64,000 nt of DNA, from the NCBI RefSeq assembly GCF_042466665.1, contig NZ_CP162102.1:7595022-7659021 (forward strand), read 5' to 3'. The DNA comes from Peterkaempfera podocarpi (lineage in GTDB: Bacteria; Actinomycetota; Actinomycetes; Streptomycetales; Streptomycetaceae). The notes under the pieces were generated by a model, which was not told where the DNA came from, ran no database searches, and saw only the letters and a program-made list of their open reading frames with translations. This document shows, piece after piece, positions 4,972-59,373 of this stretch. Both the position numbers and the translations under genes were made by a program. Every line of letters begins with the position of its first letter. The stretch's first letter is position 1.

Positions 4972-5147
4972 GAAAGTTTCGGTGAGTTTGCGAACGGTCT
5001 CGCGGAACCGTAGGACGGTCCTGATGGTGCGTCAAGAGGCTGCGCACGAGCCCGGGAAGCGCCATAACGAGATCAGGCAACAAGTCCGAATTATTTCGAA
5101 CTGAGCCCCAGGTGGCCTGGTCACGAGTTTCGCTGAACTTTCGGAAA
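4972..5147. promoter_or_regulatory. Two GAAA-N-TTTC / TTTC-N-GAAA palindromic boxes in the AT-richer leader upstream of the xylanase gene
   Basis: GAAAGTTTC at about 4972-4980 and TTTCGGAAA at about 5139-5147; similar boxes recur upstream of the GH43 gene at about 54557-54832. Confidence 0.45.
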
Positions 5148-5665
5148 CGAGACTCATTGACTGACCTCTGACACCGCTGCATACTCTCCAGCGATCGGAA
5201 ACCTCCCCGTAATGCAGGCGACTGGTTACGGATCCACCCGTCCCACCTCCGGGCGCGTTCTGGTGTGCGTGTCCGGTGACCGGAAGCTGAGGTTGCGGTG
5301 ATCGTGGATGGCGTGTGTGTCCGTGCCTGGGGTGCTCGTGGTGCGGTCGGGCCGTTGTGGTGGACGTCGTATCGGCGGTCCTGAACTGCGGGTTGTGGTG
5401 CGGGTGCTGTCGTTGTCGGCGGTCCTGCGGTGGGGGTTGTTCCGGTGGGCCTGCTGCGATCAGGCCGTGGGTGTGTGGTTGCCGATCGCACGGCGGCCGG
5501 CCGCCCTTCTCTTCTTGCCCTTGCGGTGCGGTGGCGGGCTGAGTGTCCTGCGTGCCGTGCCGGTCCCTGCGACTGTGGCCCCCTCACCGCGGCCACCTTG
5601 AGCCCGTCGGTCGGCGTCATGCCCTCCGGCGTTCCCACCCGGCTTCACCAGGAGGAAGCGCGTTC

Positions 5666-6685
5666 ATGAACACCCCCCTCACCCGCTCGAGGTTCCGCAT
5701 GCGCGGGCGCCTCAGGTGGATTCTCGCGCTGGTCGCGGCTGTGCTGCTGATCCCGGCCACCGCCCACGCGGACACCACGGTCACCTCGAACCAGACCGGC
5801 AGCAACAACGGGTACTTCTACTCGTTCTGGAGCCAGAACAGTGGTCAGGCCTCGATGACCATGGGTGCCGGCGGCCAGTACAGCACCACGTTCAACAATG
5901 TCGCCAACTTCGTTGCGGGTAAGGGCTGGAGCACCGGCAACCGCAACCCGGTGACCTACTCGGGCACCTGGAGCACCTCCGGCAACGCCTACCTCTCGCT
6001 GTACGGGTGGACCACCAACCCGCTGGTGGAGTACTACATCGTCGACAACTACGGCTCCTACAAGCCCACCGGCACCTACAAGGGCACGGTGACCTCCGAC
6101 GGCGGCACGTACGACATCTACGAGACCCAGCGGGTCAACCAGCCCTCGATCCAGGGCACGGCGACGTTCAACCAGTACTGGAGTGTGCGGCAGTCCAAGC
6201 GGACCGGCGGCACCATCACCGTCGGCAACCACTTCGACGCCTGGGCCAGCCACGGCATGAACCTGGGCTCGATGAACTACGAGATCCTGGCCACCGAGGG
6301 CTACCAGAGCAGCGGCAGCTCCAACATCACCGTCGGCTCCTCCAGCGGCGGCGGCACCACCGGCGGTACCACGGGTGGGACGACCGGGGGCACCACGGGC
6401 GGCACGACGGGCGGCGGCGGGAGTTGCACGGCGACGCTGTCGGCGGGCCAGTCCTGGAGTGACCGGTACAACCTGAATGTCGCGGTGACCGGTTCCAGCA
6501 CCTGGACGGTGACGATGAAGGTTCCGTCGCCGGAGAAGGTGATGTCGACCTGGAACATCAACGCCAGCTACCCCGACGCGCAGACCCTGGTGGCCAAGCC
6601 CAACGGCAGCGGCAACAACTGGGGCGCCACCATCCAGACCAACGGCAGCACCACCTGGCCGACGGTCACCTGCAGCCCCAGCTGA
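5666..6685 (+). CDS. xlnB: Secreted endo-1,4-beta-xylanase, GH11 catalytic domain + Gly/Thr linker + C-terminal CBM2 xylan-binding module
   Basis: GGAGGA RBS; signal peptide; GH11 hallmarks [25 protein letters not shown]; C-terminal [23 protein letters not shown]...TWPTVTCS is a CBM2. Very similar to S. lividans XlnB as I remember that sequence. Confidence 0.9.
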
Positions 6686-6813
6686 CCCACCCCGCACAAC
6701 CAGCACACGTCCGGGGGGTCGGGCTTCCTCGACGGACCCCGACCCCCCGGGATGCTCGCCCGACCGATGCCGTCCACCGCGGTCGCCGCCAGTACAAGGA
6801 GGACCCACCCGGT

Positions 6814-7833
6814 ATGCGAACCAAACCTCTTCTGTCGATACGCTCCCTTGTAGCGGGGCTGGCTGTCGCCGCGATGGCACTGGCCGGGACCCTGACGCTG
6901 AACGCGACTCCGTCGCAGGCCGCCACGTGCAACGGATACGTCGGGATCACCTTCGACGACGGCCCGTCCAACGACCACACCCCGGCTCTGCTGAACGCGC
7001 TCAAGCAGAACGGACTGCGGGCCACACTGTTCAACGAGGGCCAGTACGCCGCCGCGTATCCGGCGCAGGTCCAGGCCGAGGTGAATGCCGGCATGTGGGT
7101 CGGCAACCACAGCTACACCCACCCGCACCTGATCCAGGAGAGCCAGGCGCAGATCGACTCCGAGGTCTCCCGGACCCAGCAGGCCATCTCCAGCGCCGGC
7201 GGCGGCACGCCGAAGCTGTTCCGGCCGCCCTACGGTGAGACCAATGCGACGCTTCAGTCGGTCGAGGCCAAGTACGGCCTGACCCAGGTCATCTGGGATG
7301 TCGACTCGCAGGACTGGAACGGCGCCAGCACGGACGCGATCGTGCAGGCCAACGCCCGGCTCACCAACGGGCAGGTCATCCTGATGCACGAGTGGCCCGC
7401 CAACACCCTCGCGGCCATTCCGCGCATTGCGCAGGGGCTCGCCAGCCGGGGCCTGTGCGCCGGCATGATCTCCCCGCAGACCGGCCGCGCCGTCGCCCCC
7501 GACGGCGGTTCCAGCACCGGCGGCACGACCGCCGGCGGTACCACCGGCGGCACCACGGGCGGCGGCGGGAGTTGCACCGCGACGCTGTCCGCGGGCCAGT
7601 CCTGGAGTGACCGCTACAACCTGAACGTCGCGGTGACCGGCTCCAGCACCTGGACGGTGACGATGAAGGTCCCGTCCCCGGAGAAGGTCATGACGACCTG
7701 GAACATCACCGCCAGCTACCCCGACGCCCAGACTCTGGTCGCCAAGCCCAACGGCAGCGGCAACAACTGGGGCGTGACCATCCAGACCAACGGCAGCACC
7801 ACCTGGCCCACCGTCAGCTGCAGCGCCGGCTGA
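6814..7833 (+). CDS. axeA: Secreted acetylxylan esterase (CE4 polysaccharide deacetylase) with C-terminal CBM2
   Basis: AAGGAGG RBS; signal peptide; CE4 motifs [19 protein letters not shown]; C-terminal CBM2 nearly identical to that of the upstream xylanase. The arrangement matches the S. lividans xlnB-axeA locus. Confidence 0.85.
7558..7833 (+). repeat. About 280-bp direct repeat (about 92% identical by eye) encoding the CBM2 module; second copy of 6409..6685
   Basis: Aligned by eye; most differences are synonymous third-position changes. Confidence 0.8.
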
Positions 7834-30439: not shown

Positions 30440-30811
30440 TCAGGACTCCGACCCCGGGACGGGCACGTTCGCCAGGAACCGCTGCCGGTCGACGACCACC
30501 CGGTCGATCTCGCCGGTCGCGACAAGCTCCCCCGAGTCGTCGGAGGCCCGCACCAGAAAGGTGAGCCGCCGGCCCGCCGCGTCGGCCCGTGCCTCGGCGA
30601 CGACCTCCACCCGGCCGCCCACTCCGGTGGCACGCACATGCTCGATACGGACCGCCGTGCCCACCGTCGTCTCCCCCGGACGGATGAACGAGGCGGCGGC
30701 CCGCACGGTCGCCGCCTCCAGCCAGGCGATCAGCCGCGGGGTGGCGAGCACGGGCACGTCACCGCTTCCCACCGCCGCGGCCGTGTCGTTGTCGGTCACC
30801 TCGTGTCGCAT
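30440..30811 (-). CDS. Hotdog-fold thioesterase superfamily protein
   Basis: 123 aa; pattern matches small 4HBT-like thioesterases. Confidence 0.55.
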   Translation of the reverse strand: MRHEVTDNDTAAAVGSGDVPVLATPRLIAWLEAATVRAAASFIRPGETTVGTAVRIEHVRATGVGGRVEVVAEARADAAGRRLTFLVRASDDSGELVATGEIDRVVVDRQRFLANVPVPGSES

Positions 30812-31093
30812 CCCACCACGCTAGTGCCGCCCCCGCCGACCTTTGCCCTGCCGCGACGCCTGGCACGCACGCTCGCTCGCTGCGTTGGCCGAAAGCCCAG
30901 GTCCAGTACAGGGGCTTCCGGCCGCCTTGCGATCGCACACAGCCGATGACCTGCCAGGTTCTCGCGGGCCGTCCCCCCACCGCGGGGCCGCGGCCGGCCC
31001 CGGGCCCCGGCCCGTCGTCCTCATGGCCCGCGCCTCGTTGCGGGCCCTCTCGCGTCCCGGTGAGCTCCGGACACCCGTGCAAGGATGGTGGAC

Positions 31094-32063
31094 ATGCCCG
31101 TGCCGCAGCCCGTGCTCAGCCCGCTGACCACTGCGTCCCTGTTTCTCGTCCTCACCGTCGAGCCGGGTGGTGAGCCCGTCGTCCGGGAACTGCTCGCCGA
31201 CCTCGCAGGCCTGCAACGGGCAGTCGGTTTCGGGCACCCCGACGGACAGCTGGGGGTCGTCGCCGGCATCGGCTCCGAGGTCTGGGACCGGCTGGTGGCC
31301 GGTCCGCGTCCGGCGGAGCTGCATCCCTTCCAGGAGCTGCGCGGTGGCCGCCACCACGCCCCCGCCACCCCGGGCGACCTCCTCTTCCACATCCGGGCCG
31401 CCCGGCAGGACCTCTGCTTCTCCCTCGGCTCCGAGATCATGACCCGGCTGCGCGGCGTGGTCGCCGTCGCCGACGAAGTCACCGGCTTCACCTACCTGGA
31501 CCAACGCGACCTGCTCGGTTTCGTCGACGGCACGGAGAACCCCGTCGGGCAGGAGGCCGCCGACGCTGTACTGGTCGGCGCCGAGGACCCGGACTTCGCC
31601 GGGGGCTCCTATGTGATCGTGCAGAAGTACATGCACGACCTGGACGCCTGGAACCGCCTCCCGGTCGAGCAGCAGGAGCAGATCATCGGCCGCCGCAAGC
31701 ACACCAACGTCGAGATCGACACGCCCGGCTCCCATGTCGTCCTCACCACCATCACCGACCCGGACGGCACCGAGCGGCAGATCCTGCGCGACAACATGCC
31801 CTTCGGCAGCCCCGGCAGCGGCGAGTTCGGCACCTACTTCATCGGCTATGCACGTACCCCCTCGGTGACCGAGGAGATGCTGCGGCACATGTTCCTCGGC
31901 GACGGTCCGTTCAGCCACGACCGCATCCTCGACTTCTCCACCGCGGTCACCGGAACCCTGTTCCATGCGCACCGCCGACTTCCTGGAGGACCTGGGCGAC
32001 GAACCGGAGTCCGCGGCCGAGGAGCCCGGCTCCCTCGGGATCGGCGGACTGAAGGGCCGTTAG
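31094..32063 (+). CDS. Dyp-type peroxidase (encapsulin cargo); C-terminal targeting peptide ...EEPGSLGIGGLKGR is in the +1 frame relative to the catalytic domain (apparent 1-nt indel near 31950)
   Basis: AAGGA RBS; FVDGTENP motif; frame B from about 31955 reads ADFLEDLGDEPESAAEEPGSLGIGGLKGR-stop, whereas the catalytic-domain frame reads through without a stop into the encapsulin gene. Confidence 0.75.
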
Positions 32064-32098
32064 CAGCAGGCGGAGCAAGCGACAGGAGAACCACCCCC

Positions 32099-32908
32099 AT
32101 GGACAACCTGCACCGGGAACTCGCCCCGATCTCCGCGGCCGCGTGGGCCGACCTGGAGCAGGAGGCGAGGCGTACCTTCACCCGGCATGTGGCGGCCCGC
32201 CGTATCGTCGACGTGCCCGAGGCGGCCGGCGCGGAGCTGGCCGCTGTCAACACCGGCCACCTCGACGAGATCGAAGCCCCGGCGGCGGGGGTGCGGGCCC
32301 GGCTGCGCCGCGCCCGGCCGCTGGTGGAGCTGCGTGTGCCCTTCACGGTGAGCCGCGCAGAGGTGGACGACGTGGCCCGAGGTGCCCAGGACGCCGACTG
32401 GTCCCCGGTGAAGGAGGCCGCCCGGCGCATCGCCTTCGCCGAGGACCGCGCCGTCTTCGAGGGCTATCCGGCGGCGGGCATCACCGGCCTGCGCACCGCC
32501 TCCAGCAACCCGGCGCTGACCCTGCCCGCTGATCCCCGGCTGTACCCCAACGTCATCAGCCAGGCCGTCTCCGAACTGCGGCTGGCCGGTGTCGGCGGCG
32601 CCTACACCCTCGCGCTCAGCGCGGACGCGTACACGGCGGTCAGCGAGACCTCGGACCACGGCTACCCCATCCACGAGCACCTGCGCCGCCTGCTCGACGG
32701 GGAGATCATCTGGGCCCCCGCGGTCGACGGCGCCTTCCTGGTGTCCACCCGTGGCGGCGACTTCACCCTGCAGCTGGGACAGGACCTCTCCATCGGCTAT
32801 CTGTCCCATGACGCCGACAGCGTCCAGATGTACTTCCAGGAGTCGCTCACCTTCATCGTCCACACCGACGAGGCGGTCGTCCCCATCGGCCCCGCCCCGC
32901 AGGCGTGA
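32099..32908 (+). CDS. Family 1 encapsulin nanocompartment shell protein (Linocin M18 / Cfp29-like)
   Basis: AGGAG RBS; MDNLHRELAPISAAAWADLEQEARRTF...SDHGYPIHEHLRRLLDGEIIWAPAVDGAFLVSTRGGDF matches M. tuberculosis Cfp29 nearly residue for residue as I recall it. Confidence 0.9.
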   Translation: MDNLHRELAPISAAAWADLEQEARRTFTRHVAARRIVDVPEAAGAELAAVNTGHLDEIEAPAAGVRARLRRARPLVELRVPFTVSRAEVDDVARGAQDADWSPVKEAARRIAFAEDRAVFEGYPAAGITGLRTASSNPALTLPADPRLYPNVISQAVSELRLAGVGGAYTLALSADAYTAVSETSDHGYPIHEHLRRLLDGEIIWAPAVDGAFLVSTRGGDFTLQLGQDLSIGYLSHDADSVQMYFQESLTFIVHTDEAVVPIGPAPQA

Positions 32909-33115
32909 GCCCCGACGGCACCCCCGCAGACGTCCTGCCCCGCAGGCGGGCCGCCGGCCATGCCCGGAGCAGTCGGGTCACCCCCCGGCCGGCCTGCGGC
33001 GCGTGCCGGCGGGGCACGGCCCTGGGCGGCAGCTGAGCACCGGCGGGCGCCGGCCCGTCCATGGACCGGTCGGCCCGGCGGCCCGTCCACGGACCGCGAA
33101 CGTCCCGGGTCACCG

Positions 33116-34888
33116 TCAGCGACCGTGCAGGAGCCGGTCGAGCAGCACGTAGGCGCGCTGCTCCGTGGCCGCCAGCACGGCGGGGTCGATCTCCGCCTGC
33201 CACAGTTCCCCTGCCGCCGCGTCATCCGCCTCATGCAGTTCCACCACGGCCACGGCCAGCTGAACCTGGACCACCGGCACCGGCAACCAGGCTCCGTCCG
33301 CAAGAGCGTGCTCCGCACGCTCGGCTGCCGCCGTGCATGCGGCAAACGCCCGTTCCACCCGCACCGCAGCCTGGCCGTGGACCACCAGCAGCGCGCAGGC
33401 CAGTCCGGCGGCGATCCCCAGAATGCTGCTCAGCCCCCGGTCGTAGACGAGGTCGCGGGCGGGGACAGCGCTGGTCAGCTCGCTCATCAGCAGGGCCAGG
33501 GGCGTGACGAAGACGACCGCCAGGCCGTAGTTGAGCGCGACGCCGTACTCCAGCAGGAATTCCAGGACCACGACCACCAGGACCAGCACCAGCGGATCCG
33601 GCTGCCCGGCCAGCACTCCCAGGGCGAGCAGCAACCCGGAGACCGTGCCCAGGGTGCGCTGGACGGCACGCTGCGCCGTCGTGCGGACATTGACCGAGTG
33701 CAGCACGGCGGCCGCTGTGATCGCCGCCCAGTAGCCGTGCCCGAGGCCGAGGAGAGCGGCTACCCCGCCCGCCACCGCGGTGCCGAGAAACATCCGCAGC
33801 GCGGGAACCACCAGCGCCACGCCGGAGACCGGACCGGCGGGGCCGCGCCCCACCACGAGTTCGGCGGCACGCCGCGCGACAGGACCGGCCGCCGCCGATG
33901 TCCCGGCCGTGCGGCAGAGGACATCGGCGGCCGCCACCGGGGACGGCGACAGCAACTCGGGCAGCGCAACGGGGGGTCTGCGCCGCCGGACCGCGAGAAG
34001 GCCGGCCTGCCGGTGCAGGAGCTGCGGCGTGGCGGTGGACGCGCCGGGGGACCGGTGCACCGAGCAGACCAGCAGTGACCAGGACAGGTCGGTCAGCAGC
34101 ACGCAGGTCCCGCCCTGCCTGCGCCGCTCGCCGTGCTCGGCGGCCGTCGGCGGTGCCAGGCCGAGGGAGAGATAGGCCTCCAGGATGCCGACCGTTGCGC
34201 GGTGCCGTGTCCGTGCGGCGCGCTGTACGTCGGCCTCCTCCAGCAGTGCGGCGAGTTCGCGAAGGGCGGTGGCGACCGCGAGACGCTGCGGACGGTCCGG
34301 GTGCACCAACCAGCCCGGCATCGCCAGCACCCAGGCCGTGGCCGCGCCGATCGCGGCCAGCGCGGTCTGCGGGGCGACATCGGCCGGGGCGGGCGAGCCG
34401 TTGGCCGCCACCGCGAAGGAGAAGAGCAGCAGCACCGCGCCCAGGCCGCCCAGTCGCGTCGCGCCGCAGGCGAACTTGGCCAGGCCCGCCACCACGGCCG
34501 TCGCCACGACCACCACGGCGGTGCCCGGTCCGCTCGTCTGGGGATGCGTCACCGCAGCGAGGGCCGACCCGCATCCGACACATGCCGTCATGGCCACCGC
34601 GGTGACCGCGAGAACGCGAGCCCGCCGCGGGTAGGGCAGATTGCGCCCGAATGTGGCGGTGAATGCACCGAGCATCGCGTAGACGGCGGGTCCGGTCCGC
34701 CCGGTGAGCGCCAAGGGAAGCGCGGGCAGTGCCATCGCCAGCGCCGCGCGGAGGGCGAAGAGCAGCGCCCCGTCCACCCTGTGCAGCGCGAGCGCACCGC
34801 GTGGGGAGAGCACGCACGCCGCATCGGCGACGGAGGCCCGCCGGCTCCTTCCGGGTTCGGCAGGGGGTGGGTCGGGCAAAACCGGCAT
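33116..34888 (-). CDS. FUSC (fusaric acid resistance / aromatic acid exporter) family membrane protein
   Basis: 590 aa with two blocks of TM helices separated by a hydrophilic region; family call from general pattern. Confidence 0.55.
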   Translation of the reverse strand: MPVLPDPPPAEPGRSRRASVADAACVLSPRGALALHRVDGALLFALRAALAMALPALPLALTGRTGPAVYAMLGAFTATFGRNLPYPRRARVLAVTAVAMTACVGCGSALAAVTHPQTSGPGTAVVVVATAVVAGLAKFACGATRLGGLGAVLLLFSFAVAANGSPAPADVAPQTALAAIGAATAWVLAMPGWLVHPDRPQRLAVATALRELAALLEEADVQRAARTRHRATVGILEAYLSLGLAPPTAAEHGERRRQGGTCVLLTDLSWSLLVCSVHRSPGASTATPQLLHRQAGLLAVRRRRPPVALPELLSPSPVAAADVLCRTAGTSAAAGPVARRAAELVVGRGPAGPVSGVALVVPALRMFLGTAVAGGVAALLGLGHGYWAAITAAAVLHSVNVRTTAQRAVQRTLGTVSGLLLALGVLAGQPDPLVLVLVVVVLEFLLEYGVALNYGLAVVFVTPLALLMSELTSAVPARDLVYDRGLSSILGIAAGLACALLVVHGQAAVRVERAFAACTAAAERAEHALADGAWLPVPVVQVQLAVAVVELHEADDAAAGELWQAEIDPAVLAATEQRAYVLLDRLLHGR

Positions 34889-35463
34889 GATCGGTGTATA
34901 TCACCTGTGCTGCATCATTCCGCCTGGCGGGTCGGTCGGTGGTCGGCGACTCCCTCCGGCCCTGGGGTCCTCGGCCCCTGTGAGTCCCGCGGCGGTGCTA
35001 CCAGGCATCGCGACGGAGGGGCCGGTGTCGCGGCCCTGCTCCAGCCGTTTGAGGTGGTCGACGCCCAGGCCCGCCCACGTGGTGGGTTCCTCGCGCCGCA
35101 GTCCGGGGTCCGCCGCCGACCGGTGGAGGGCAACTCGACCTGCTCGGGCTTGAGTTGATGCCGGCGTCAGCGCGGAAGCGTCGCCGGTTCGCCGGCGTCG
35201 GCCGGCGCGCCCCCGAGGGTGCCGGGACAGTGCCGGCGTCCGCCTGCGGGTGCTCCCGGAGCGTTGCCGGGTGGACAGCGGAAAGGATCCATGAGTCGTG
35301 GCGGTGATCGACCCCCTGGGCGGTCGACCCGCACGACAGCCGATGGCGCCCGGCGGAAGCTCCCAGGCCTTTGTGCGCGCCTTCCCGCTGGGCACTCTCT
35401 ACCGCTGTCTGCTGCGGGCAGCAGGGTTCCCATGCTTCGGTCAAGTGATGTCCGGGCAGACCG

Positions 35464-36051
35464 TCAGCTCGCTCGCCCCGTCGGATGTGAAGCGTCCGCC
35501 AGGGCGCCCGCCGCGCCGGCCGCCAGGGCTGTGACCTCGGCTGCCGCGCGGGCGGCCCGTCCGGACACCCGCCAGGCGAGCATGCGCAGGGCGGTGGCCG
35601 GAGCCGGGGGGAAGACGCCGAGCTGGCCGAGCATGGTGATGTCGTCCCGCAGTGCCTCGTGCCGGACCACCTTCCCGCCGCGGACATCGAGCAGATGGAC
35701 CTGCTCGAAGTCGATCTCGCGTCCGGTCGGGGGGATGGCCTGGTCGAGTGCGCCGTCCTTGAAGCGCACGAACGGGCCGGTGTGGCGGCCCTGCATGCGG
35801 AGCCGGACCCAGACCTGATCGTCGTTGCGGGCGACGCCGAGGACGGGGAAGCGCAGGTCGCTGAAGGCCGAGCGCAACCATGCTCCCGACGCCAGAGTGC
35901 CCGCCGGTCCCGGTATGGCGCAGGCCGGGGGTGCGACCGCGGCCTCACGGTTGTGGTTCTGCTCGTCCACGACGTCGACGGCGAGCTCCAGGTCGCCCGT
36001 CTCGAGTACCCGGAAGAGCCCGTGTGCCAGTTCGGCGGTGTCCAGTGCCAT
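35464..36051 (-). CDS. SnoaL-like / ester cyclase (NTF2-like fold) protein
   Basis: Internal ATG; NREAAVAPP...GP.G...AF.DL...V.G.HTG.F...IPPTGREI...GKVV.HE is ester-cyclase-like. Confidence 0.6.
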   Translation of the reverse strand: MALDTAELAHGLFRVLETGDLELAVDVVDEQNHNREAAVAPPACAIPGPAGTLASGAWLRSAFSDLRFPVLGVARNDDQVWVRLRMQGRHTGPFVRFKDGALDQAIPPTGREIDFEQVHLLDVRGGKVVRHEALRDDITMLGQLGVFPPAPATALRMLAWRVSGRAARAAAEVTALAAGAAGALADASHPTGRAS

Positions 36052-36236
36052 CGTGCCCACCTTTTCACTGTGCGGTGCCTGGTTCTCGCAGCCCGCAGCC
36101 CGCAGCCCGCGGCTCCGGCCTTCGGCCCTTAGTCCTCGGCCGTCGTGACGGTTCCGACAGGGCCTGCGTGGCGGCTGCGATATTGAGGTTATAGAGCACC
36201 GAATCAATAGGTCAAACAACCCGCTAGAATCTGGGC

Positions 36237-36848
36237 ATGGCCTCAAAGCGCGTGTACGTCTCCCCCTTGCGCGAGCAGGCCGCCGCCCAGACGCGCGCGC
36301 TGATCCTCCAGCGGGCCACCGAGCTGTTCGCCGACCGCGGCTACGGACTGGTGACCGTCGCGGACATCGCGTCGGCAGCCGGTGTCGCCGCCAAGACCGT
36401 CTTCGCCAGCGTGGGCAGCAAGGGCGACATCCTGGACCGGATCGTCGACGAGGGCGTCAGCGCGTCCGGCTACGACCAGGCCATGGAGCAGGTGCTCGCC
36501 CTGCGGACGCCCGAGGCGGTCCTCGAAGCCCTCGCCCGCGGCACTCGGCTGGGCAATCAGGGGCAGTTCAGCGTGCACGAGGCGATCCGCAAGGCCCTGC
36601 CCTGCCATGAGCAGGGCGAGGCGCTGTGGGAACGTGCGACCGCGGCCTACCGCGATGCGCTCCGCGCCGCCGCCCGCCACCTCCACACCCTGGCCCCGCC
36701 GCCCCGCTGCACGGTGGAGGAGACGGCGGACCTGCTGTGGTTCTGGTTCGGCCCCGGTGGCTGGCGCACCCTGGTCGTCGAGAACGGCTGGTCGTGGGAG
36801 CGGGCCGAGGAGGTTCTCCACCGGACCGCCGTCGCCACTCTCTGCTGA
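36237..36848 (+). CDS. TetR/AcrR family transcriptional regulator (divergent from the ester cyclase)
   Basis: N-terminal HTH TRALILQRATELFADRGYGLVTVADIASAAGVAAKTVF. Confidence 0.75.
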   Translation: MASKRVYVSPLREQAAAQTRALILQRATELFADRGYGLVTVADIASAAGVAAKTVFASVGSKGDILDRIVDEGVSASGYDQAMEQVLALRTPEAVLEALARGTRLGNQGQFSVHEAIRKALPCHEQGEALWERATAAYRDALRAAARHLHTLAPPPRCTVEETADLLWFWFGPGGWRTLVVENGWSWERAEEVLHRTAVATLC

Positions 36849-37345
36849 ACCCCGCGGCGAGTCATCAGCGGGTCCCCGGTCGCGGAGGCGACGGTGCCGC
36901 CGGTGGCCTTCTCGAACCGCGCCCCTGTGTGCTGGGCCCAAGGGTCGGGCAGAAGCCAGCTGAACCCAGGCCGGACGGTGCTCCGGGAGTGAACCGCGGC
37001 AACGGCCCGGTCGAGTTCGCCCAGCACACGTTCGGCATGGCCGAGGAAGAGCTCCCCGGCGCCGGTCAGCGCCATATGCCGTGCACCGCGATCTCACAGT
37101 GTCACCCGTACCGTCGCCGCCAGCCGGCGAACGGTCCGGCTCGGGGCCGGCCGGGTGATCGCCGGCTGCTGTGCGGCGCGGGTGAAGGATTCCGGACGCG
37201 CCACCGCGACGAACGCCCTGAGACGACGCGGTTCGACGTCCGTGCCTGCCGAGCACACCGACGGCACGGAAGGCATCCCCCAGGGTCTTCCGGCGCACGT
37301 AACGTCGCCTGGGGGGAGGCCCGACCCACCAGGAAGAGGATTTTC

Positions 37346-38376
37346 ATGGCTTCGCCACTGACTGCTCTCGGAGTCGGCATCCCGGTCGTGGCCGCGCCGA
37401 TGGCCGGCGGCCCCACCACTCCGGCGCTGGTCACCGCCGCAGCCCGGGCGGACGGCCTCGGATTCCTCGCGGGCGGGTACCGGACCGCCGACAACCTGGC
37501 GGAGCAGATCGCCCGGGTCCGCTCGGACGGTGTCGTCTTCGGGGTCAACCTGTTCGCGCCCAACCCCGTCCCGGTCGACGCGGCGGCCTTCAGCCGGTAC
37601 GCCCGCGCCATCGCGCCCGAGGCCGAGCCCTACGGCATCGATCTCTCCACGGTCGGCATCGTCCAGGAGGACGACCGCTGGTCGGACAAGATCGACCTGC
37701 TGCTGTCCGACCCCGTCCCGGTGGTCAGCTTCACCTTCGCCGTCCCCGGCGCATCCGTGATCGCCGCGCTGCGCGCCGCCGGAACCCTCGTGGTCCAGAC
37801 GGTCACCTCCGCCGCCGAGGCCCGCCAGGCCGCCGAAGCCGGCGTCGACGCGCTCGCCGTCCAGGCGACAGCGGCAGGGGGGCACTCCGGAACCTTCACC
37901 CCCCAGCAGACTCCGCCGGCGCTCCCGCTGGCCCACCTGCTCGGGCAGGTGCGGCAGGCGGTCTCCTGCCGCTGATCGCCGCCGGTGGCCTGGCCACCCC
38001 GGATGCCGTCACCGAGGCACTGTGGAACGGAGCCGACGCGGTCATGGTCGGCACCGTCCTGCTGCGCGCGGACGAGGCCGGCACCTCAGACCCGTACCGG
38101 GCCGCCCTGGCGGACTCCGAACGCCGGCACACCATGGTCACCCGGGCGTTCACCGGCAGGCCCGCTCGGGCCCTGCGCAACACCTTCACCGACCGCTACA
38201 GCGGCATCGCCCCGGCCGGGTATCCCGCGCTGCACCACTTGACCAGCCCCCTGCGCAGGGCGGCAGTCGCCGCCGGTGATCCCGCACGCATCAACCTGTG
38301 GGCCGGGACCGGGCACCGCCATGCCACGGAGGAGCCCGCGGCCCAGATCCTGCGACGGCTCGCCTCCCGGCTCTGA
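37346..38376 (+). pseudogene. Nitronate monooxygenase (NMO / 2-nitropropane dioxygenase) family gene interrupted by an apparent 1-nt deletion in a C run at about 37960
   Basis: N-terminal part ends ...VRQAVSCR-stop; the +1 frame continues LPLIAAGGLATPDAV...TRAFTGRPARALRN. Restoring ccc in gtctcc(c)tgccg gives a continuous NMO. Confidence 0.7.
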
Positions 38377-38560
38377 GTGGCGGCACCGGATTCCCGACCA
38401 CCCGGCGGCAGTGTCGCGACACGCCGTCCGACCGGGCACACCGCCGTGCGGATGCCCCGGCCCCCGCGCACGACGCCCCGCACCACCGGCTCCGAGGAGC
38501 GGGAAGTGCGGGGCGCGGAGTGCCGGATGCCCGGCTGCGGTGTGCCTGCGCGGGGGTTTG

Positions 38561-41089: not shown

Positions 41090-42016
41090 CTACTGTCCGG
41101 CCGGTTCGGGGTCGGGTGACCAGGCGCCCGGACCGTGAAGGACGGGAAGGCCGCCGATCCCGTCGCTCAGTGCCTCGACGGCGGCCAGGACGGCCGGGCG
41201 GACTTCGCCGCGACGCCGGACCAGGGACCATGTCCAGTAGATCCGAGGAGCCACCACGGGGCATGCGACCAGATCCGGCGGCAGCGGATTGCTCACTCCC
41301 TTCGGGGAGTTGATGAGCGGCCGCCGGCTGCGGCGGACATGGTCGAAGAAGGCGGGCCCGGTGATCCCGCCGTCGGAGATGTGCTCGATGCGGACGCCGG
41401 TGTCACGGGCCAGCTGTTCGGCGTAGAGGTTCCAGGACGCCCAGTACGTGCTGTCGTCGTCGACCAGGACGGCCGTGTCCTCCGCGCGTACGTCGCCCCC
41501 GCAGTCCCTGGTGGCGACCGCGTGCAGCCGGTCCGCGCCTATCAGTCGGGCGTCGAGGTCGAGCCGGTCCAGGTCCCGGGCGGGCACCCAGCACGCCGCA
41601 AGGTCGAGGCTCCCGTCGGCGACGCGGGCGGCCTGTGCGTGGGAGGGGGCGATCCAGGGGTCGATGTGGACCTGGGCCACCGCGGAGGTGAGCGCGGTCA
41701 GGTTGGGGGGCAGCCAGTTGACATATCCGAACCGCACGGGTTCGGAGCCGGAGATCTGTGCGGCGCGGCGCCGCAGCTCCTCCGCCTGTTCCAGCAGCGT
41801 GCGGGCCTGCGGCAGCAGAGCGGAGCCGGCCGGGGTGAGCGCCACCGAGCGGCGGTCACGATCGAAGAGTCGCACCCCGAGGTCGCGCTCCAGGGATTTG
41901 ATCTGCTGCGACAGGGACGGCCCGGCGATCAGCAGTCGCTCGGCGGCGCGGCCGAAGTTCAGTTCCTCGGCGACCGCGACGAAGTACCGCAGTTGGCGCA
42001 GTTCCACGAGCGCCAT
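41090..42016 (-). CDS. LysR family transcriptional regulator
   Basis: Internal start MALVELRQLRYFVAVAEELNFGRAAERLLIAGPSLSQQIKSLE (LysR HTH). Confidence 0.75.
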   Translation of the reverse strand: MALVELRQLRYFVAVAEELNFGRAAERLLIAGPSLSQQIKSLERDLGVRLFDRDRRSVALTPAGSALLPQARTLLEQAEELRRRAAQISGSEPVRFGYVNWLPPNLTALTSAVAQVHIDPWIAPSHAQAARVADGSLDLAACWVPARDLDRLDLDARLIGADRLHAVATRDCGGDVRAEDTAVLVDDDSTYWASWNLYAEQLARDTGVRIEHISDGGITGPAFFDHVRRSRRPLINSPKGVSNPLPPDLVACPVVAPRIYWTWSLVRRRGEVRPAVLAAVEALSDGIGGLPVLHGPGAWSPDPEPAGQ

Positions 42017-42430
42017 GCTACGTGCGTGGGGAGGCGTACCCCGGCTGCGGGGAGGCTTCCTCCTGGCGGCGTCGGCCCGCGCGAACCGCCGGTGCCCAGG
42101 CCGAACGCCTTCGTCGGGCACCTTGCGGGAGGCGGGGCCTTCCCATGGCGCAGGGCCTCGGCCGGGGGCGCCTGCGGCGACGTATCGGAGTGTTCCGTCG
42201 CGGAGCTCTGCGCCTGTTGCGGTGCTTCTCAGGCCGTGGTGCTTCTCCGGCCGGGCTCGTGCGGATCGCTGCCGCCACTGCTGCGCCCCGAGGGCATCGC
42301 CGATGCCGCGGCCTGCGCCGTCACCCGGGACCGTCGGGTGGCCGTGAACGAGATCCCTGTGCGCGCCGCCGAGCAGACCCGGTGGCAGGGGGATGGTGAG
42401 GTCCGCCCGCGCCTCGGGTGCGCGAATCCC

Positions 42431-42490
42431 GTCACCGCTTTGACAGGTGACTGACGCCATGCCACTGTAGTCACCACTTGGACAGGTGAC
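42431..42490. promoter_or_regulatory. Two copies of the 21-bp motif GTCACC-N9-GGTGAC (gtcaccgctTTGACAggtgac; gtcaccacttggacaggtgac) upstream of ohr
   Basis: Read in sequence; a third copy is at 48240-48260. Confidence 0.55.
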
Positions 42491-42537
42491 GCCCTGGATG
42501 GTGAGTGCATCCAGGGGAGAATCGGAAAGGCATGACC

Positions 42538-42957
42538 ATGGCTGAAGCGCACTACACCGCCCTTGTCACCGCGACCGGCGAGGGCCGCAACGGCGGCCGG
42601 GCCGAGTCCAGCGACGGTGTGCTCGACCTGACCCTGGCCATCCCGAAGGAGCTGGGAGGAAACGGCGGGGCCACCAACCCCGAGCAGCTCCTCGCGGCGG
42701 GATGGGCCTCCTGTTTCCTGGGCGCGGTCAGGATCACCGCCGCGAAGAGGAAGCTGGCGCTGCGGAATCCGGCCGTCGCAGCCGAGGTCACCCTGCACCA
42801 CACCGCAGGCGACTTCAGCCTCAGCGCCGTCCTCCGGCTCACGGTCGAAGGGGTGGACCAGATCACCGCTGAGGAGCTCGGTGCCGACGCCCACCAGGTC
42901 TGCCCCTACTCCAAGGCGCTCGCCATCCCGGTGACCATCGAGGCGACCGTCGTCTGA
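42538..42957 (+). CDS. ohr: Organic hydroperoxide resistance protein, Ohr/OsmC family peroxiredoxin
   Basis: MAEAHYTALVTATGEGRNGGRAESSDGVLDLTLAIP...C-x...C. Confidence 0.75.
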   Translation: MAEAHYTALVTATGEGRNGGRAESSDGVLDLTLAIPKELGGNGGATNPEQLLAAGWASCFLGAVRITAAKRKLALRNPAVAAEVTLHHTAGDFSLSAVLRLTVEGVDQITAEELGADAHQVCPYSKALAIPVTIEATVV

Positions 42958-46055: not shown

Positions 46056-46117
46056 TCCTTGACGCGTCAAGGAGTCTGAGGTCTACTGGCGTGGAAGTAC
46101 TTGCTTGACGCGGCAAG
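46056..46117. promoter_or_regulatory. Perfect 16-bp palindrome CCTTGACGCGTCAAGG plus a degenerate second copy GCTTGACGCGGCAAGC 30 bp downstream, between the MarR gene and the FMN reductase-VOC operon
   Basis: Read in sequence. Confidence 0.5.
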
Positions 46118-46159
46118 CTTATTGCTCCGCCGTGTCGCCACATGAAAAGGGGCACCACC

Positions 46160-46720
46160 ATGACCAGGATCGGCATCATCGTCGGCAGCACCCGGCCCGG
46201 CCGCAACGCGGAGGCCGTCGCCCACTGGGTCCACCAGGTTGCCGCACAGCGCGCCGACGCCACGTTCGAGCTCGTCGACATCCACGACTACAAGCTCCCG
46301 CTGCTCGACGAGGCCTACCCGCCGTCGATGGGGCAGTACGCCCAGCCGCACACCCAGGCCTGGGCCGAGAAGATCGCTTCCTTCGACGGCTTCATCATCG
46401 TCACCCCCGAGTACAACCGCTCGGTGCCCGGCGCCCTGAAGAACGCCATCGACTTCCTCTACGCCGAGTGGAACAACAAGGCCGTCGGCTTCGTCAGCTA
46501 CGGCGGCACCGGTGGCACCCGCGCCGTGGAGCACCTGCGCGGGATCGCCGGGGAGCTCCAGATGGCCGATGTGCGCTCCCAGGTCGCCCTCTCGCTCTTC
46601 ACCGACTTCGAGAACTTCACCACCTTCAAGCCCGCCGACATCCAGCACGCCACCCTGACCACCACCCTCGACCAGGTCATCGCCTGGGCCGGCGCGCTCG
46701 CCCCGCTCCGCGCCAACTGA
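46160..46720 (+). CDS. NAD(P)H-dependent FMN reductase (flavodoxin-like fold)
   Basis: MTRIGIIVGSTRPGRN...IVTPEYNRSVPGALKNAIDFL. Confidence 0.8.
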   Translation: MTRIGIIVGSTRPGRNAEAVAHWVHQVAAQRADATFELVDIHDYKLPLLDEAYPPSMGQYAQPHTQAWAEKIASFDGFIIVTPEYNRSVPGALKNAIDFLYAEWNNKAVGFVSYGGTGGTRAVEHLRGIAGELQMADVRSQVALSLFTDFENFTTFKPADIQHATLTTTLDQVIAWAGALAPLRAN

Positions 46721-46795
46721 CACATCCACCAGGGGTGCCGCGCGGTCCGGCCGACGGTGCCCATGTCCGCGCAGCCCGTAGAGAGGACCGGGAAC

Positions 46796-47311
46796 ATGGC
46801 ACAGCCGCAGGGTGAGGAACTGCAGGCGCTCCTGGAGCGCCAGGCCGAACTGAGGCAGCAGTACCTCGTCCCCTCCGCGGAGCGGCAGGCGAGCTCGGCG
46901 CGGGGAGTCCACCACGCCGCGTTCATCGCCAGGGACGTGGAGGAGACCATTCTCTTCTACCGGGATGTCATGGGATTTCCGCTGGTGGACCTGGCGGAGA
47001 ACCGGGACTACCGCGGATCGACCCACTTCTTCTTCGACGTCGGGGGCGAGAACATGATCGCCTTCTTCGACTTCCCGGGGCATTCCCACCCGGAGTTCGA
47101 GGAGGCGGTCGGTGGCAGCCACCATGTGGCGCTGTCGGTCACCGCGGAGACCTTCGACGAGATCAAGGGGCGTCTGGACGAGCGGGGCCTCCCCTACATG
47201 ACGGTGTCGAGCGAGGTCGCACCCAGCCTCTTCGTGGCCGATCCCAACGGACTCAGGCTGGAGCTCATCGGGGAGCCGCTGGGACACGCCCTCGGTGAGT
47301 ACCTGCTCTGA
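46796..47311 (+). CDS. VOC (glyoxalase / bleomycin-resistance / dioxygenase) family protein
   Basis: GAGAGG RBS; HHAAFIARDVEETILFYRDVMGFPLV...HHVALSV. Confidence 0.7.
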   Translation: MAQPQGEELQALLERQAELRQQYLVPSAERQASSARGVHHAAFIARDVEETILFYRDVMGFPLVDLAENRDYRGSTHFFFDVGGENMIAFFDFPGHSHPEFEEAVGGSHHVALSVTAETFDEIKGRLDERGLPYMTVSSEVAPSLFVADPNGLRLELIGEPLGHALGEYLL

Positions 47312-47749
47312 CCGATCAGGGCGACATCCAGCGCCGGCGACCCGGGACCCGCTCAGCGGGTCGCGGGTCGCCGCCGCGTGTGCGCCCGGCGCCCTCGGGC
47401 TCTGCCCGGCACGGCCGGGTGCCGGTCGTCGCGGTGCCGGAAACGCGACGCGACCGCGCCGAGCGGGAGGCGGCAGGCCGGGTTCCGAGGGCCGGTCGCC
47501 GCCCCGGGGGAGTCCGTCGAAGAGCCCGCGACTGCGGACCGTGCGGCGACGACGAGGGCGTCGGCCGTGCCGGCCCCCCGGGTGGGTGGGGAGCGAGCAG
47601 TCGCGGTCATGCCGTCGGCCTTCACCGGCTGCGGGCATGCCGGGCCCTCGTGCTGGTGCGTGTGGTCGGGAGCGCCGCAGTGGTTGGTCCGGCGTGCCGG
47701 GACTGCGGTCGCAGCTCCCGCGAAGCGGTGCCGGTGCCGGGACGCGTCC

Positions 47750-47778
47750 GGCCCGCTCCGAGCAGCTCGGAGCGGGCC
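47750..47778. terminator. Perfect 14-bp stem hairpin 26 nt after the stop of the minus-strand 28-aa ORF
   Basis: ggcccgctccgagc-a-gctcggagcgggcc. Confidence 0.5.
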
Positions 47779-47803
47779 GGTGCGGCCGGTGCTTGGCCGG
47801 TGG

Positions 47804-47890
47804 TCAGAACACCTGGGCGTAACAGCCCAGGGAGACGGCCAGGGCGAGTACCGCGAGTGACACGGCCAGGAGGGGTTTGGGTATACGCAT
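47804..47890 (-). CDS. 28-aa hydrophobic peptide MRIPKPLLAVSLAVLALAVSLGCYAQVF (single TM segment)
   Basis: ATG with GGAGAG RBS 7 nt upstream; 33 nt downstream of the preceding small ORF; followed by the hairpin terminator. Confidence 0.45.
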   Translation of the reverse strand: MRIPKPLLAVSLAVLALAVSLGCYAQVF

Positions 47891-47919
47891 GGGAACTCTC
47901 CAGAGGGTGGAGGACGGGC

Positions 47920-48096
47920 TCACAGGCAGTAGCGGACGAGCCACTCGTCGGAGTTGTAGGTGTCTCGCGCCGGATCGGGCACCGTCGCGGCCTGCTCCTC
48001 GACCATCTCCTCGGGGCGGATGCGCTCCGGCAGTCTGCCGAATCGGGCGCGGCGGGCCGCCTCGGCAGCCTCGGAGGTGTTCTGTGCAGACCGCAT
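47920..48096 (-). CDS. 58-aa hydrophilic protein MRSAQNTSEAAEAARRARFGRLPERIRPEEMVEEQAATVPDPARDTYNSDEWLVRYCL
   Basis: ATG with GAGGAGACG RBS; below the ORF-track size cutoff; found by reverse-strand translation. Confidence 0.45.
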   Translation of the reverse strand: MRSAQNTSEAAEAARRARFGRLPERIRPEEMVEEQAATVPDPARDTYNSDEWLVRYCL

Positions 48097-48239
48097 CGCA
48101 TCGTCTCCTCAGCGCTTCGGCGGCGGGACGGTCCGGCCGGCCGGCGGGGGTGGTGTGGGGCTGCGCTTTCGCGGGTGACCTCACAGCGGGGCACTCGGTG
48201 GCCCGGATGCCCGTTTCATCTGAGAGTGCTCCCCCATTC

Positions 48240-48260
48240 GTCACCTGTCAAGGAGGTGAC
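48240..48260. promoter_or_regulatory. Third copy of GTCACC-N9-GGTGAC, with TTGACA on the minus strand, about 145 bp upstream of the small two-ORF operon
   Basis: gtcacctgtcaaggaggtgac; its reverse complement gtcacctccTTGACAggtgac matches the ohr-upstream copies. Confidence 0.55.
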
Positions 48261-48498
48261 GTATGGCGACCGACTCAACGGCGAGGCGTCACCCCCCGCT
48301 CTGTTGAGACATGGGGGCGCTGCTGCCCGCGTGTGGGGGAACTCTGTGCGGCGGGCCGCCGGAATTCCCCGGGCCGGGTCCGTCGAGAACCCGTTCCGGA
48401 CAGCGGAGCTTCCCTGTCCGTCGTCGCGGCAGGGGGGCGCCGGCGGCGCCTTTCGGGCGCTGGGCGGCGACGAGGTCTGCCGCTGTGCGGGTCGGGCG

Positions 48499-49149
48499 TC
48501 AGGCCCGAGCGGCCGTGCGGCTCTCCCATGCCTGCTTCAGCGCCTGGGAGTAGAGCTCGAAGGGCTGCAGCCCGGCCATGCCGTACTTCTGGTCCAGGAC
48601 GAAGAACGGGACGCCGCCGGCGCCCAGTTCGGCGGCTCGCCGCTCGTCCGTCCGTACGTCTGCCGCGTACGCGCGTGAGTCGGCGAGGACCCTGCGTGCC
48701 GCGCTCTCCTCCAGGCCCACCTCCACCGCCAGCGCGACCAGGGTCTCCGTGTCGTAGATGGACCGCTCGTCCGCGAAGTTCACCTGGAAGGCGCGCTCCA
48801 TCAGTCCGGCCTGGAGGCCCTGGCTCTTGGCGAAGTGCAGCAGGCGGTGGAGGTCGAAGGTGTTGCCGTGGACGCGTCCTCCGACGCGGTAGCCGAGTCC
48901 CTCGGAGCGTGCCGCGGTGGCGGCCTGCTCCTCGCGGGCTGTCTGCTGCTCGCGGGTGCGCCCGTACTGGGCGGCGACGGCTTCGATGATGGGTGTGTTG
49001 CGGGACTCGGCCTCGGGGTTGAGCTCGAACGACCGGTGGACCACCTCGACCTGGTCCCGGTGCTCGAAGGCCGCGAGTGCCCGTGCGAAACGGGCTCGGC
49101 CGATGTAGCACCAGGGGCAGGCGATGTCGGTCCAGATCTCGACGCGCAT
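48499..49149 (-). CDS. DsbA/FrnE-like thiol-disulfide oxidoreductase (thioredoxin fold, CPWC active site)
   Basis: AAGGAG RBS; MRVEIWTDIACPWCYIG. Confidence 0.75.
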   Translation of the reverse strand: MRVEIWTDIACPWCYIGRARFARALAAFEHRDQVEVVHRSFELNPEAESRNTPIIEAVAAQYGRTREQQTAREEQAATAARSEGLGYRVGGRVHGNTFDLHRLLHFAKSQGLQAGLMERAFQVNFADERSIYDTETLVALAVEVGLEESAARRVLADSRAYAADVRTDERRAAELGAGGVPFFVLDQKYGMAGLQPFELYSQALKQAWESRTAARA

Positions 49150-56943: not shown

Positions 56944-58240
56944 TCACAAGTCTGCTCGCATCCGGGGGCGGCAACTGCTGAGCCGTGTTCCTTGGTCCTT
57001 CTCGGTGGCAACGGCGGAGGCGGAGAGGAGTGTCGCGGCGGCGAGGCTGCCCCAGAGGGCGGCCGGGCCGTGGGGTGCGAGCGTGGTGATGACCGCCGGG
57101 GAGACGGCGAGGCCGAAGCCCGTGGAGAGCTGGAAGCGAGCCACGGCGCGTCCCAGGAGATGGGCCGGGGCGAGTGCGGTGACGAGCGCGGTGGCGCTGC
57201 CGGCGTAGATGATCTCGCCGATCGTGCAGACCACGGACACCGCGGCGACGGCCGGGGTACCCCAGCCGTGTCCCAGTGAGGTGGCCACGAGAAAGCCGAG
57301 GTAGGACGCGGTCAGCACCACGCCGGAGAGGGCCAGCACGGCCCGCCGGGAGAAGCGTGACAGGAGGACGGTGACCGGCACCTGCAGGGTGACGACCAGC
57401 ACCGTGTTGGCCACGAAGACGGCTGCCGGCCACACCAGGGATGCGTGGAACTGCGTCACCAGGACCAGGGAGCGCGATCTCGGGGACGTTGAGGCAGAAG
57501 ACATAGACCACATTGGCGGCCAGCAGCGCGACCATTCGGGGTGCGGGTTCGTCGTCCCGGCCCTTGGCCGCGGCGGCCTCCGCCGGATGTGCGTGCACGT
57601 GGACCGACCACGCCAACGCGGCTGCGGCAAGGTAGGCGAGCGCAGTGACAGCTGCCAGCGCCCGCAATTGGGCGGTGCCGCCCGCCAGGCATACGGTGGC
57701 AAGGAGTGCTCCGACGCCCAGGGCGGCGTTGCGCAGGGCGCGGGCCCCCGCGAGGGCGGTGTCGCGGTCTCGGCCGTGGGCGACCGTGGCCACGAGCGCG
57801 GCGTGGGCGGCAGGCCATGCCTGGTTGCCGATGCCGAGGAAGAGTGCCGCCGTCGCGAAGAGCCAGACGTGTCCCGCCGGGGCGGCCAACAGCAGCGCCA
57901 CGCCCACCACCCGCACCAGCATCGACGCCGCCACGACCGTGCTGCGCGCGCCGCGGTCCAGCCATCGGCCTACCGCGGGCATGCACATCAGGCCCGCGAC
58001 GATGCCGACCGTCATGGCGGTGCCGGTGACGGGCGCGGACAGCCTCAGTACGTTGACGCCGTAGAGCAGCAGAAAGGGCCGCAGCAGGCCGGTGCCCAGC
58101 GCGTCCACGGCCAGGGCGACGGCATAGCGGGGGCCTCCGGAGGCGCGGACGAGGGCACGGGGCTGGATTCTGGTGATGGTTGCCACAACGTCAGACGGTG
58201 CGTTCCGCTGCTGGGGCAGGGCACGTCGGTTGACGCACAT
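56944..58240 (-). pseudogene. 12-TMS MFS transporter gene split by an apparent 1-nt insertion in a C run at about 57485
   Basis: N-terminal half ends ...NVPEIALPGPGD in one frame; the C-terminal half LVLVTQFHASLVWPAAVFVANTVLVV...ATEKDQG continues in the adjacent frame; deleting one c from gcgctccctggtc joins them. Confidence 0.65.
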
Positions 58241-58287
58241 CGTCAATCGACGCCGTCGCGAGGTCGTCCGGCGGCGATGATGAGGGG

Positions 58288-59373
58288 ATGACGCTGAGGA
58301 TCGACATCAGCGGCCTGCCGTCCGAGCGACTGCGCTTCGCCGCCTCTCCGCTGGCCGAGCTGACCGCGATGCTGCATGTGCTGGCCGAACCCGGTCACCA
58401 TCCGCAGTTCGCGGGCTGGGCCGCGGACGTCTGGGCCGGGCTGCGGCCGGAGCTGGCCGAGCGGCTCAGGGAGGCGGAGTTCCTCTGGCGTTCCTCACAG
58501 GCCGACTTCATGATCCCCGCACGGCCCCGGTCGAGCCTCGCCGAAGAGCTGGACGACGTGGACCGGATCGACGACGAGACATATGTGACCGCCGCGCTCG
58601 TCACCACGTGCGGCAGCAACCGGGTCCATTTCCCCGGGTCGTCGCCGCTCACCGACAAGGCCGCACGCGAGCGGGCCCTGGACGTGGCCCAGGCCCGCGG
58701 CGCTCTGCAGGAGGCCTTCGCGGAACGGCTGCTCGCGGACCCGGCCGCGGTGCGGGCGCGGGTGCGCCACACCCTCGAAGCATGCGCCGAGGCATTCTTC
58801 GACGGCGCCTGGGCGGACGTCGCGATGCAGCTCGCCACCGATCTGCGCCTGAAGAACGAACTGCTCAGGCGCCACGGCATCGGGGCGGCACTCGCCTCGG
58901 TCTCCGGCGCGGTCACCCTGGCGCCGGACGGCGACTGCATCATCGTGGACAAGGTGCAGGACAAGGCGACCGCTGCCCGTGGCGCCGGGGTCACCTTCAT
59001 CCCCAGCGTCTTCGGCCGCCCGCACCTGGTGGCGGTCCATGCGCCCGGATGGCATCCGGTGGTGCAGTACCCCGTCGCCGAGCCGAGTCCGGCGGAGCCG
59101 GTCTCCCTGGAAACGGTCACCCTCCGGCTGGAGGCGCTCGCACATCCGGTACGGCTGCGGCTGCTGCGCACCCTGGCCCGCGGCCCGCACACCACCGGCG
59201 AGCTGGCCCACTTCTGGGAACTCTCGCCCCCGGAGGTGTCCCGCCACCTTGCCGTCCTGCGCCGCGCAGGCCTGCTCACCGCTCGGCGGCAGGGTCGTTA
59301 CGTCCGGTACACCCTCAATCTGCCTGATCTGACGGCGTTGGGCGCCGACCTGCTGGCGGCCGTACTGCGTTGA
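58288..59373 (+). CDS. ArsR-family winged-HTH regulator with N-terminal DUF5937-like domain (divergent from the MFS gene)
   Basis: GAGGGG RBS; C-terminal LAHPVRLRLLRTLARGPHTTGELAHFWELSPPEVSRHLAVLRRAGLL. Confidence 0.7.
   Translation: MTLRIDISGLPSERLRFAASPLAELTAMLHVLAEPGHHPQFAGWAADVWAGLRPELAERLREAEFLWRSSQADFMIPARPRSSLAEELDDVDRIDDETYVTAALVTTCGSNRVHFPGSSPLTDKAARERALDVAQARGALQEAFAERLLADPAAVRARVRHTLEACAEAFFDGAWADVAMQLATDLRLKNELLRRHGIGAALASVSGAVTLAPDGDCIIVDKVQDKATAARGAGVTFIPSVFGRPHLVAVHAPGWHPVVQYPVAEPSPAEPVSLETVTLRLEALAHPVRLRLLRTLARGPHTTGELAHFWELSPPEVSRHLAVLRRAGLLTARRQGRYVRYTLNLPDLTALGADLLAAVLR

Follow-up and report, generated by a model that had tools for sequence, protein, structure and literature searches.

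An apparent DyP peroxidase–encapsulin fusion in Peterkaempfera podocarpi is probably an ordinary cargo–shell operon with a 2-nt deletion error

The deposited sequence of Peterkaempfera podocarpi (formerly Peterkaempfera sp. SMS 1(5)a; a single-contig genome of 8.83 Mb; PMC13442426) encodes a 607-aa read-through ORF (31085..32908, + strand) that combines a complete DyP (dye-decolorizing peroxidase) domain with a complete Family 1 encapsulin. All coordinates refer to the 64,000-nt stretch of DNA analysed here (hereafter the window), which has the G+C content of actinomycete DNA, 72%. The locus raises the question whether this ORF represents a covalently linked cargo and shell or two genes joined by a frameshift, and, if the latter, whether the frameshift belongs to the organism or to the assembly. 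The original prediction described a single cargo–shell ORF, stop-free before the shell ATG, and the translation bears this out. The locus consists of the following elements:

31094..31970, + strand: DyP catalytic-domain coding sequence, read in the native frame up to L-F-H-A plus the first Pro-codon base (Pfam, homologue alignment)
31964..31979, + strand: frameshift site, CAT GCG C^ACC GCC GAC (HMM frame switch; relatives 2 nt longer; homologue spacing)
31971..32063, + strand: linker and C-terminal encapsulin targeting peptide, TADFLEDLGDEPESAAEEPGSLGIGGLKGR, with the TAG stop, in the +1 frame (translation, consensus match)
32064..32098, + strand: intergenic spacer of 35 nt with the encapsulin ribosome-binding site AGGAG; the catalytic frame is stop-free here (sequence)
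32099..32908, + strand: Family 1 encapsulin shell gene, 269 aa, intact (Pfam, exact protein match, dN/dS)

A Pfam search started with the 607-aa ORF identifies Dyp_perox_N at residues 8-135, Dyp_perox_C at 139-295 and Linocin_M18/encapsulin at 339-589 (profile positions 1-253 of 253). The DyP part, which likely starts at ATG 31094 (there is an alternative upstream ATG at 31085, but in RefSeq the orthologue begins at the second one), is a B-type DyP by both its fold, assigned through families PF04261 and PF20628, and its catalytic motifs, namely the GXXDG distal Asp, the proximal His and the distal Arg. Residues 2-294 align to the encapsulated-subgroup DyPs of Streptomyces lividans and S. coelicolor with E=1e-127, and the alignment to S. 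lividans DtpB-type chains shows conservation of the motifs GFVDGTENP, SHV and ILRDNMPFG. The Pfam domains and this alignment establish that the frame initially called catalytic is the correct one.

The shell gene had been predicted to be intact and preceded by AGGAG, and it is both. The AGGAG is located at 32084-32088, 10 nt 5' of the shell ATG at 32099, and the encoded protein matches PF04454 (Linocin_M18) over its full length with E=2.7e-96. It is identical to WP_377274464.1 / XHM96177.1, named "family 1 encapsulin nanocompartment shell protein", and its residues 1-263 align to the Cfp29 shells of M. tuberculosis with E=8e-116. A Family 1 shell was defined here as a full-length HK97-fold-type Linocin_M18 protein of about 265 aa, without an extended N-arm or a fusion domain, and the product of this gene has these features. 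Given its high similarity to solved shells, the protein is predicted to self-assemble into an icosahedral T=1-type particle.

The DyP gene is in the position of a cargo gene, immediately upstream of the shell gene, with a spacer of 35 nt. [quoted passage not shown] In gene order (DyP, then shell), short spacer, Pfam domains and the C-terminal GSLGIG(S/G)LK targeting motif, the locus is similar to the actinobacterial Family 1 DyP-cargo operons, e.g., those of M. tuberculosis (Cfp29/DyP; PDB 7phm, 7p1t and 9bkx), M. smegmatis (7boj/7bok), Rhodococcus jostii (DypB) and S. lividans (DtpB, 6yr4). The DyP-cargo Family 1 encapsulin system itself is already known. Unlike the classical operons of this type, the deposited window has the targeting peptide in the +1 frame, hence the read-through ORF.

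The two frames diverge within the 3' part of the DyP gene. As originally predicted, the +1 frame (relative to the catalytic one) encodes the targeting peptide and terminates at TAG 32061-32063, whereas the catalytic frame reads …TGTLFHAHRRLPGGPGRR…TTPMDNL (also given as …TGTLFHAHRRLPGG…TTPMDNL) and runs without a single stop into the encapsulin ATG. According to a codon-periodicity HMM, the frame changes at 31965/31966 and changes back at about 32061-32077; two composition HMMs agree on a frame change at about 31962-31966 and a reversal at about 32061-32077.

The lesion lies between 31970 and 31971, within "catgcgc^acc", where 2 nt are absent from a Pro codon: the window reads CTG TTC CAT GCG C^ACC GCC GAC TTC, i.e., L-F-H-A-(P, 2 nt missing)-T-A-D-F. 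Both flanks are conserved, each in its own frame, with LFHA(P) and TADFLEDL matching natural homologues. The homologue motif is LF[F/Y/H][V/A/T]P (natural examples are LFHAP and LFHVP), and the distance from this Pro to the FL(E/D)DL motif is exactly three residues in 117 of the 117 homologues (P-x-x-x-[FL]L). Because this spacing is fixed, a 2-nt deletion in the Pro codon is, judging from the alignments, a better fit than a 1-nt insertion. Restoration of 2 nt yields LFHAPTADFLEDL, which is near-identical to a natural homologue (P0044, LFHAPTADFLDDL), and brings the targeting motif in frame. In the DNA alignment, all 13 closest relatives, including P. griseoplana, have 2 nt more at this site than the window. 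According to the original prediction, removal of a single base near 31950 restores the frame; this is so, but the coordinate is about 20 nt away from the true site at 31970/31971, and the repair under the one-extra-base model, LFHAPADFLEDL, produces a Pro-to-FL spacing of two residues that is found in none of the 117 homologues. The gap placement chosen by MAFFT, TTC--CAT, which would call for a complex event (three adjacent substitutions plus a replacement of Pro by Arg), was rejected on the homologue motif statistics: because the motif varies at these positions and has a fixed spacing, the substitutions near the gap represent ordinary allowed variation, and the gap belongs to the Pro codon. 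A templated or quasi-palindromic mutation was also considered and dropped, the search for a nearby templating repeat having given only weak repeats.

The frameshift is present in the deposited sequence, and the fusion ORF that results from it is an unremarkable by-product because stop-free off-frames of this length are common in the window. The chance that an off-frame of 44 codons stays free of stops is 0.47 by composition and 0.48-0.87 empirically, in the off-frames of the window's genes, and the odds that the shell ATG is then in the catalytic frame are about 1-in-3. The ATG is in that frame because the spacer of the window contains one C more than its counterpart in P. griseoplana (35 nt vs 34 nt), in the C-run before the ATG.

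In the sister species P. griseoplana (NRRL B-3064, locus LIQR01000564.1), DyP (WP_055590854.1) and shell (WP_055590838.1) are encoded by separate genes. The DyP is intact (326 aa as an ORF, 323 aa in RefSeq) and ends with …LFFVPAADLLEDLGDDAPATAEQGSSLGIGGLRGR, with the targeting peptide SSLGIGGLRGR, similar to that of the window, in frame; the ribosome-binding site is the same, and the shells share a 90%-identity cluster. Separate genes and an in-frame targeting peptide are also found in 12 other relatives (13/13 closest), so that the comparison of orthologous loci proposed along with the original prediction favours the two-gene layout. An adjacent shell gene is present in 50 of 80 species-representative loci, with a fused ORF in none of the 50. 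The DyP of the window is 93% identical to that of P. griseoplana, with a dN/dS of 0.15; the respective dN/dS values are 0.10 for the shell and 0.9 for the 29-codon linker and targeting-peptide segment, in which the SLGIGGL(K/R)GR anchor is nevertheless conserved. By these estimates, both the DyP and the shell are under purifying selection, and neither is decayed. The low dN/dS values, together with the intact targeting peptide, stop and ribosome-binding site, point to a lesion that either arose very recently or does not exist in the organism.

Downstream of the shell gene, the P. griseoplana locus (L001, 1873-2320) continues directly with a SnoaL_4 / muconolactone isomerase / LysR block. The window has the same SnoaL-MIase-LysR block, separated from the shell gene by about 5.6 kb of additional DNA (32909-38550) with genes for a FUSC-family membrane protein, a SnoaL cyclase-like protein, a TetR regulator and a nitronate monooxygenase.

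The locus is most probably an ordinary DyP-cargo Family 1 operon, whose read-through ORF results from a 2-nt deletion, itself probably introduced in the assembly. Under this explanation, a standard two-gene operon would encode a DyP with a C-terminal targeting peptide and, 35 nt downstream, a shell with its own ribosome-binding site; the loss of 2 nt at 31970/31971 would make the catalytic frame bypass the targeting peptide and its stop and, after 44 GC-rich codons without a stop, reach the in-frame shell ATG. The missing dinucleotide would most likely have been dropped in error when the long-read consensus of this single-contig genome was made, in which case the organism would produce a normal 323-aa DyP that is loaded via the targeting peptide into a T=1-type shell. 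The anatomy, position and size of the lesion, its absence in relatives and the intact state of both genes are shown above, and an excess of similar lesions nearby is shown below; we infer that the lesion is artefactual and not a true mutation.

The bearing of this inference on the genome as a whole comes from two further frameshifts in the window. The nitronate monooxygenase gene (37196-38376, + strand) is broken at 37966, with Pfam positions 11-193 and 194-328 encoded in consecutive frames; a single C is missing at a CC run (TCC CTG is read as TCCTG), and addition of one C at 37966 gives a gap-free alignment to PDB 3bw2 across the junction (LLGQVRQAVSLPLIAAGG). An MFS transporter gene (56944-58246, - strand) is broken at 57469/57468, where a Pro codon has lost 2 nt, a lesion of the type seen in the DyP gene (CTC CCT CTG is read as CTCCCTG). 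This site reads GCG CTC C^CTG GTC in the window and NVPEIALPLVLVTQ in all homologues; at the DNA level, the gene is 93.3% identical to that of Streptomyces sp. NBC_00820, the 2-nt gap being the sole internal indel. A Pfam-based search for frame-split genes among roughly 45 other ORFs of the window found none; two of the screened ORFs, a LysR regulator (41093-42565) and a flavin-reductase fragment (59333-59908), show partial domain coverage. The composition HMMs are noisy as frameshift detectors, and several candidates that they produced proved to be normal gene junctions, among them 5543-7833 (xylanase, deacetylase) and 46109-47311 (two separate genes, for an FMN reductase and a glyoxalase).

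The 64-kb window contains three clean, fresh deletion frameshifts in about 51 genes, each in a conserved gene that is otherwise intact. In wild isolates, fresh real frameshifts hit well under 1% of the genes. The observed number is far above the expectation for real fresh frameshifts in a wild isolate and points to consensus errors in the P. podocarpi SMS 1(5)a genome; deletion-biased errors in a long-read consensus typically produce an excess of this sort, which suggests an error of this kind here. On the other side, 2-nt deletions away from long homopolymers are not the most frequent type of long-read error, and three lesions in one window are a small sample, so that a strain rich in recent real frameshifts would look alike. 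The ranking first proposed for this locus, namely a sequencing indel ahead of recent pseudogenisation and a genuine fusion last, is supported by the orthologues, the purifying selection and the two further frameshifts.

The MFS transporter gene is divergently paired with a gene for a DUF5937-ArsR regulator (56944-59373; locus L084), and the conservation of the two genes between genera is unusually high. Homologues of the MFS protein from Actinoallomurus, Amycolatopsis, Actinomadura and Spirillospora share about 90% identity with it; the DUF5937 regulator, an exact match to XHM94886.1, belongs to a 90%-identity cluster that also includes proteins of Streptomyces, Amycolatopsis, Actinoallomurus and Actinomadura. 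This sequence conservation suggests that the pair is a recently spread two-gene cassette. The ORF right after the DUF5937 gene (59333-59908, + strand) matches positions 88-152 of 153 of Flavin_Reduct only and looks like a truncated remnant, not a frameshift. Among other features of the window, two adjacent ORFs on the + strand, assigned by reading the sequence as secreted xylanase-like (5543-6685) and polysaccharide-deacetylase-like (6814-7833), share an almost identical Gly/Thr linker of ~100 aa and a C-terminal carbohydrate-binding-type module; this similarity suggests a recent module duplication or gene conversion. Three stretches (1519-2675, 4528-5657 and 47307-48520), each >1 kb, show no codon periodicity in six frames and no convincing ORF, with a GC of about 0.65-0.8 at all three codon positions; this is an unusually long extent of apparent non-coding DNA for an actinomycete and could represent degraded genes or something else.

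A genuine recent mutation of any kind appears improbable, and we consider quite improbable the specific scenario of a genuine, very recent 2-nt deletion that strips the DyP of its targeting peptide and impairs cargo loading, i.e., early pseudogenisation. In that case, translation from the DyP starts would yield a DyP–linker–encapsulin protein of roughly 65 kDa, the ribosome-binding site of the shell gene would still give a free 29-kDa shell, and the nanocompartment would likely be unloaded or misassembled. Compatible with this scenario, the one deposited sequence of the strain shows the lesion, which is outside a long homopolymer (exact look-ups of the fusion, two repaired DyP versions and the shell gave a single NCBI record), and the DyP catalytic domain is intact to LFHA, so that a truncated or fused enzyme could still fold. 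However, there is no secondary decay of the DyP gene, its targeting peptide and stop or the shell's ribosome-binding site, the deletion is seen in none of the relatives compared, and a real event would entail three independent fresh frameshifts in 64 kb, which is improbable for a wild isolate.

A functional covalent DyP–encapsulin fusion, in which a few fusion subunits would co-assemble with free shell protein produced from the internal ribosome-binding site, is very improbable. If real, it would replace non-covalent peptide targeting by covalent N-terminal tethering, so that DyP would still be internalised, independently of the targeting peptide; bacteria would then have an equivalent of the archaeal Flp-fusion encapsulins, observed at the moment of its emergence. 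In the Flp-fusion encapsulins (Pyrococcus furiosus, Sulfolobus solfataricus) and the anammox cytochrome-fusion encapsulins, the cargo is N-terminal to the shell in one ORF; in Flp-fusion systems, the N-terminal cargo is internalised on assembly, and in Family 1, the N-terminal helix is part of the targeting-peptide binding pocket (PMC8346489). The ribosome-binding site of the P. podocarpi shell gene is intact, and the 42-residue out-of-frame linker, rich in Gly, Pro and Arg, is plausibly flexible. However, the archaeal Flp-fusions and anammox cytochrome-fusions are conserved across lineages, whereas the fusion in the window is confined to one assembly, derives from a frameshift, links DyP to a predicted T=1-type shell and keeps a targeting peptide and stop in another frame. 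An in-frame N-terminal cargo domain, the hallmark of the Flp-fusion type, is conserved in none of the relatives, and the targeting peptide with its stop, which would now be useless, is perfectly preserved. A shell made entirely of fusion subunits is implausible given the size of the T=1 lumen, the capacity of which, to our knowledge, is exceeded by sixty DyP copies. Flp- and cytochrome-fusions are the only fusion types given in a survey of 1,505 DyP systems (PMC8346489).

Fused DyP–encapsulin ORFs do occur in databases, where they look like assembly artefacts. A protein database search started with the 607-aa ORF identifies about 30 proteins with all three domains. These proteins (e.g., P0001-P0019; loci L082 and L083) consist of 600-640 aa and contain the same three Pfam domains as the window ORF, but are 47-65% identical to it and independent of it, coming from other taxa, each with its own indel; in several of them, the targeting peptide is out of frame, as it is in the window ORF. 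Those listed as fusions form singleton clusters (one has three member sequences), most of them found in ENA metagenome assemblies only. Two of the fusions were traced to their sources, a CAVS-prefixed MAG (the prefix is shared with Microflora Danica MAGs) and an ENA assembly with "contig_" names, and this naming may be a sign of long-read origin. Two proteins, P0001 and P0013, contain additional scrambled stretches within the shell domain; in L083, the targeting peptide is out of frame, and in L082, CCCC instead of CCC before an ATGA stop/start overlap accounts for the fusion. Because these ORFs are singletons, some with scrambled stretches, and none of the 50 species-representative loci is fused, they appear to be a recurrent class of assembly artefact. 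In another locus, L067, from a nanopore-style MAG (MFD04434.bin.1.131), the DyP targeting motif is out of frame, and a stop precedes the shell, so that there is no fusion ORF.

Programmed +1 (or -2) ribosomal frameshifting or transcriptional slippage, which would yield two DyP isoforms, some with the targeting peptide, is hardly credible: the shifted frame includes rare codons, CGA CTT CCT, at which a +1 slip would re-enter the targeting-peptide frame and whose CUU-C context presumably bears a loose resemblance to the prfB CUU-U slip site, but no Shine-Dalgarno-like stimulator lies upstream, positions 31960-31990 contain neither a homopolymer nor a known slippery motif, an Rfam search of 30500-33500 at E<=1 gave no match, and the relatives all encode the targeting peptide in frame, the shifted layout being unconserved.

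Should the lesion prove real, the strain would serve as a natural experiment in which a nanocompartment has lost its cargo or received it covalently. Under the preferred explanation, an ordinary operon with an assembly error, the value of this locus is that of a quality-control warning against spurious DyP–encapsulin "fusions" and against probable indel errors in this genome. Deletion errors are probable in this genome (about 1 per 20 kb in the window) and would inflate its pseudogene count. More generally, in a GC-rich genome, any indel within ~100 nt of the 3' end of the DyP gene can create an apparent fusion ORF because GC-rich off-frames rarely contain stops, and it would be wrong to list these ORFs as a new encapsulin architecture.
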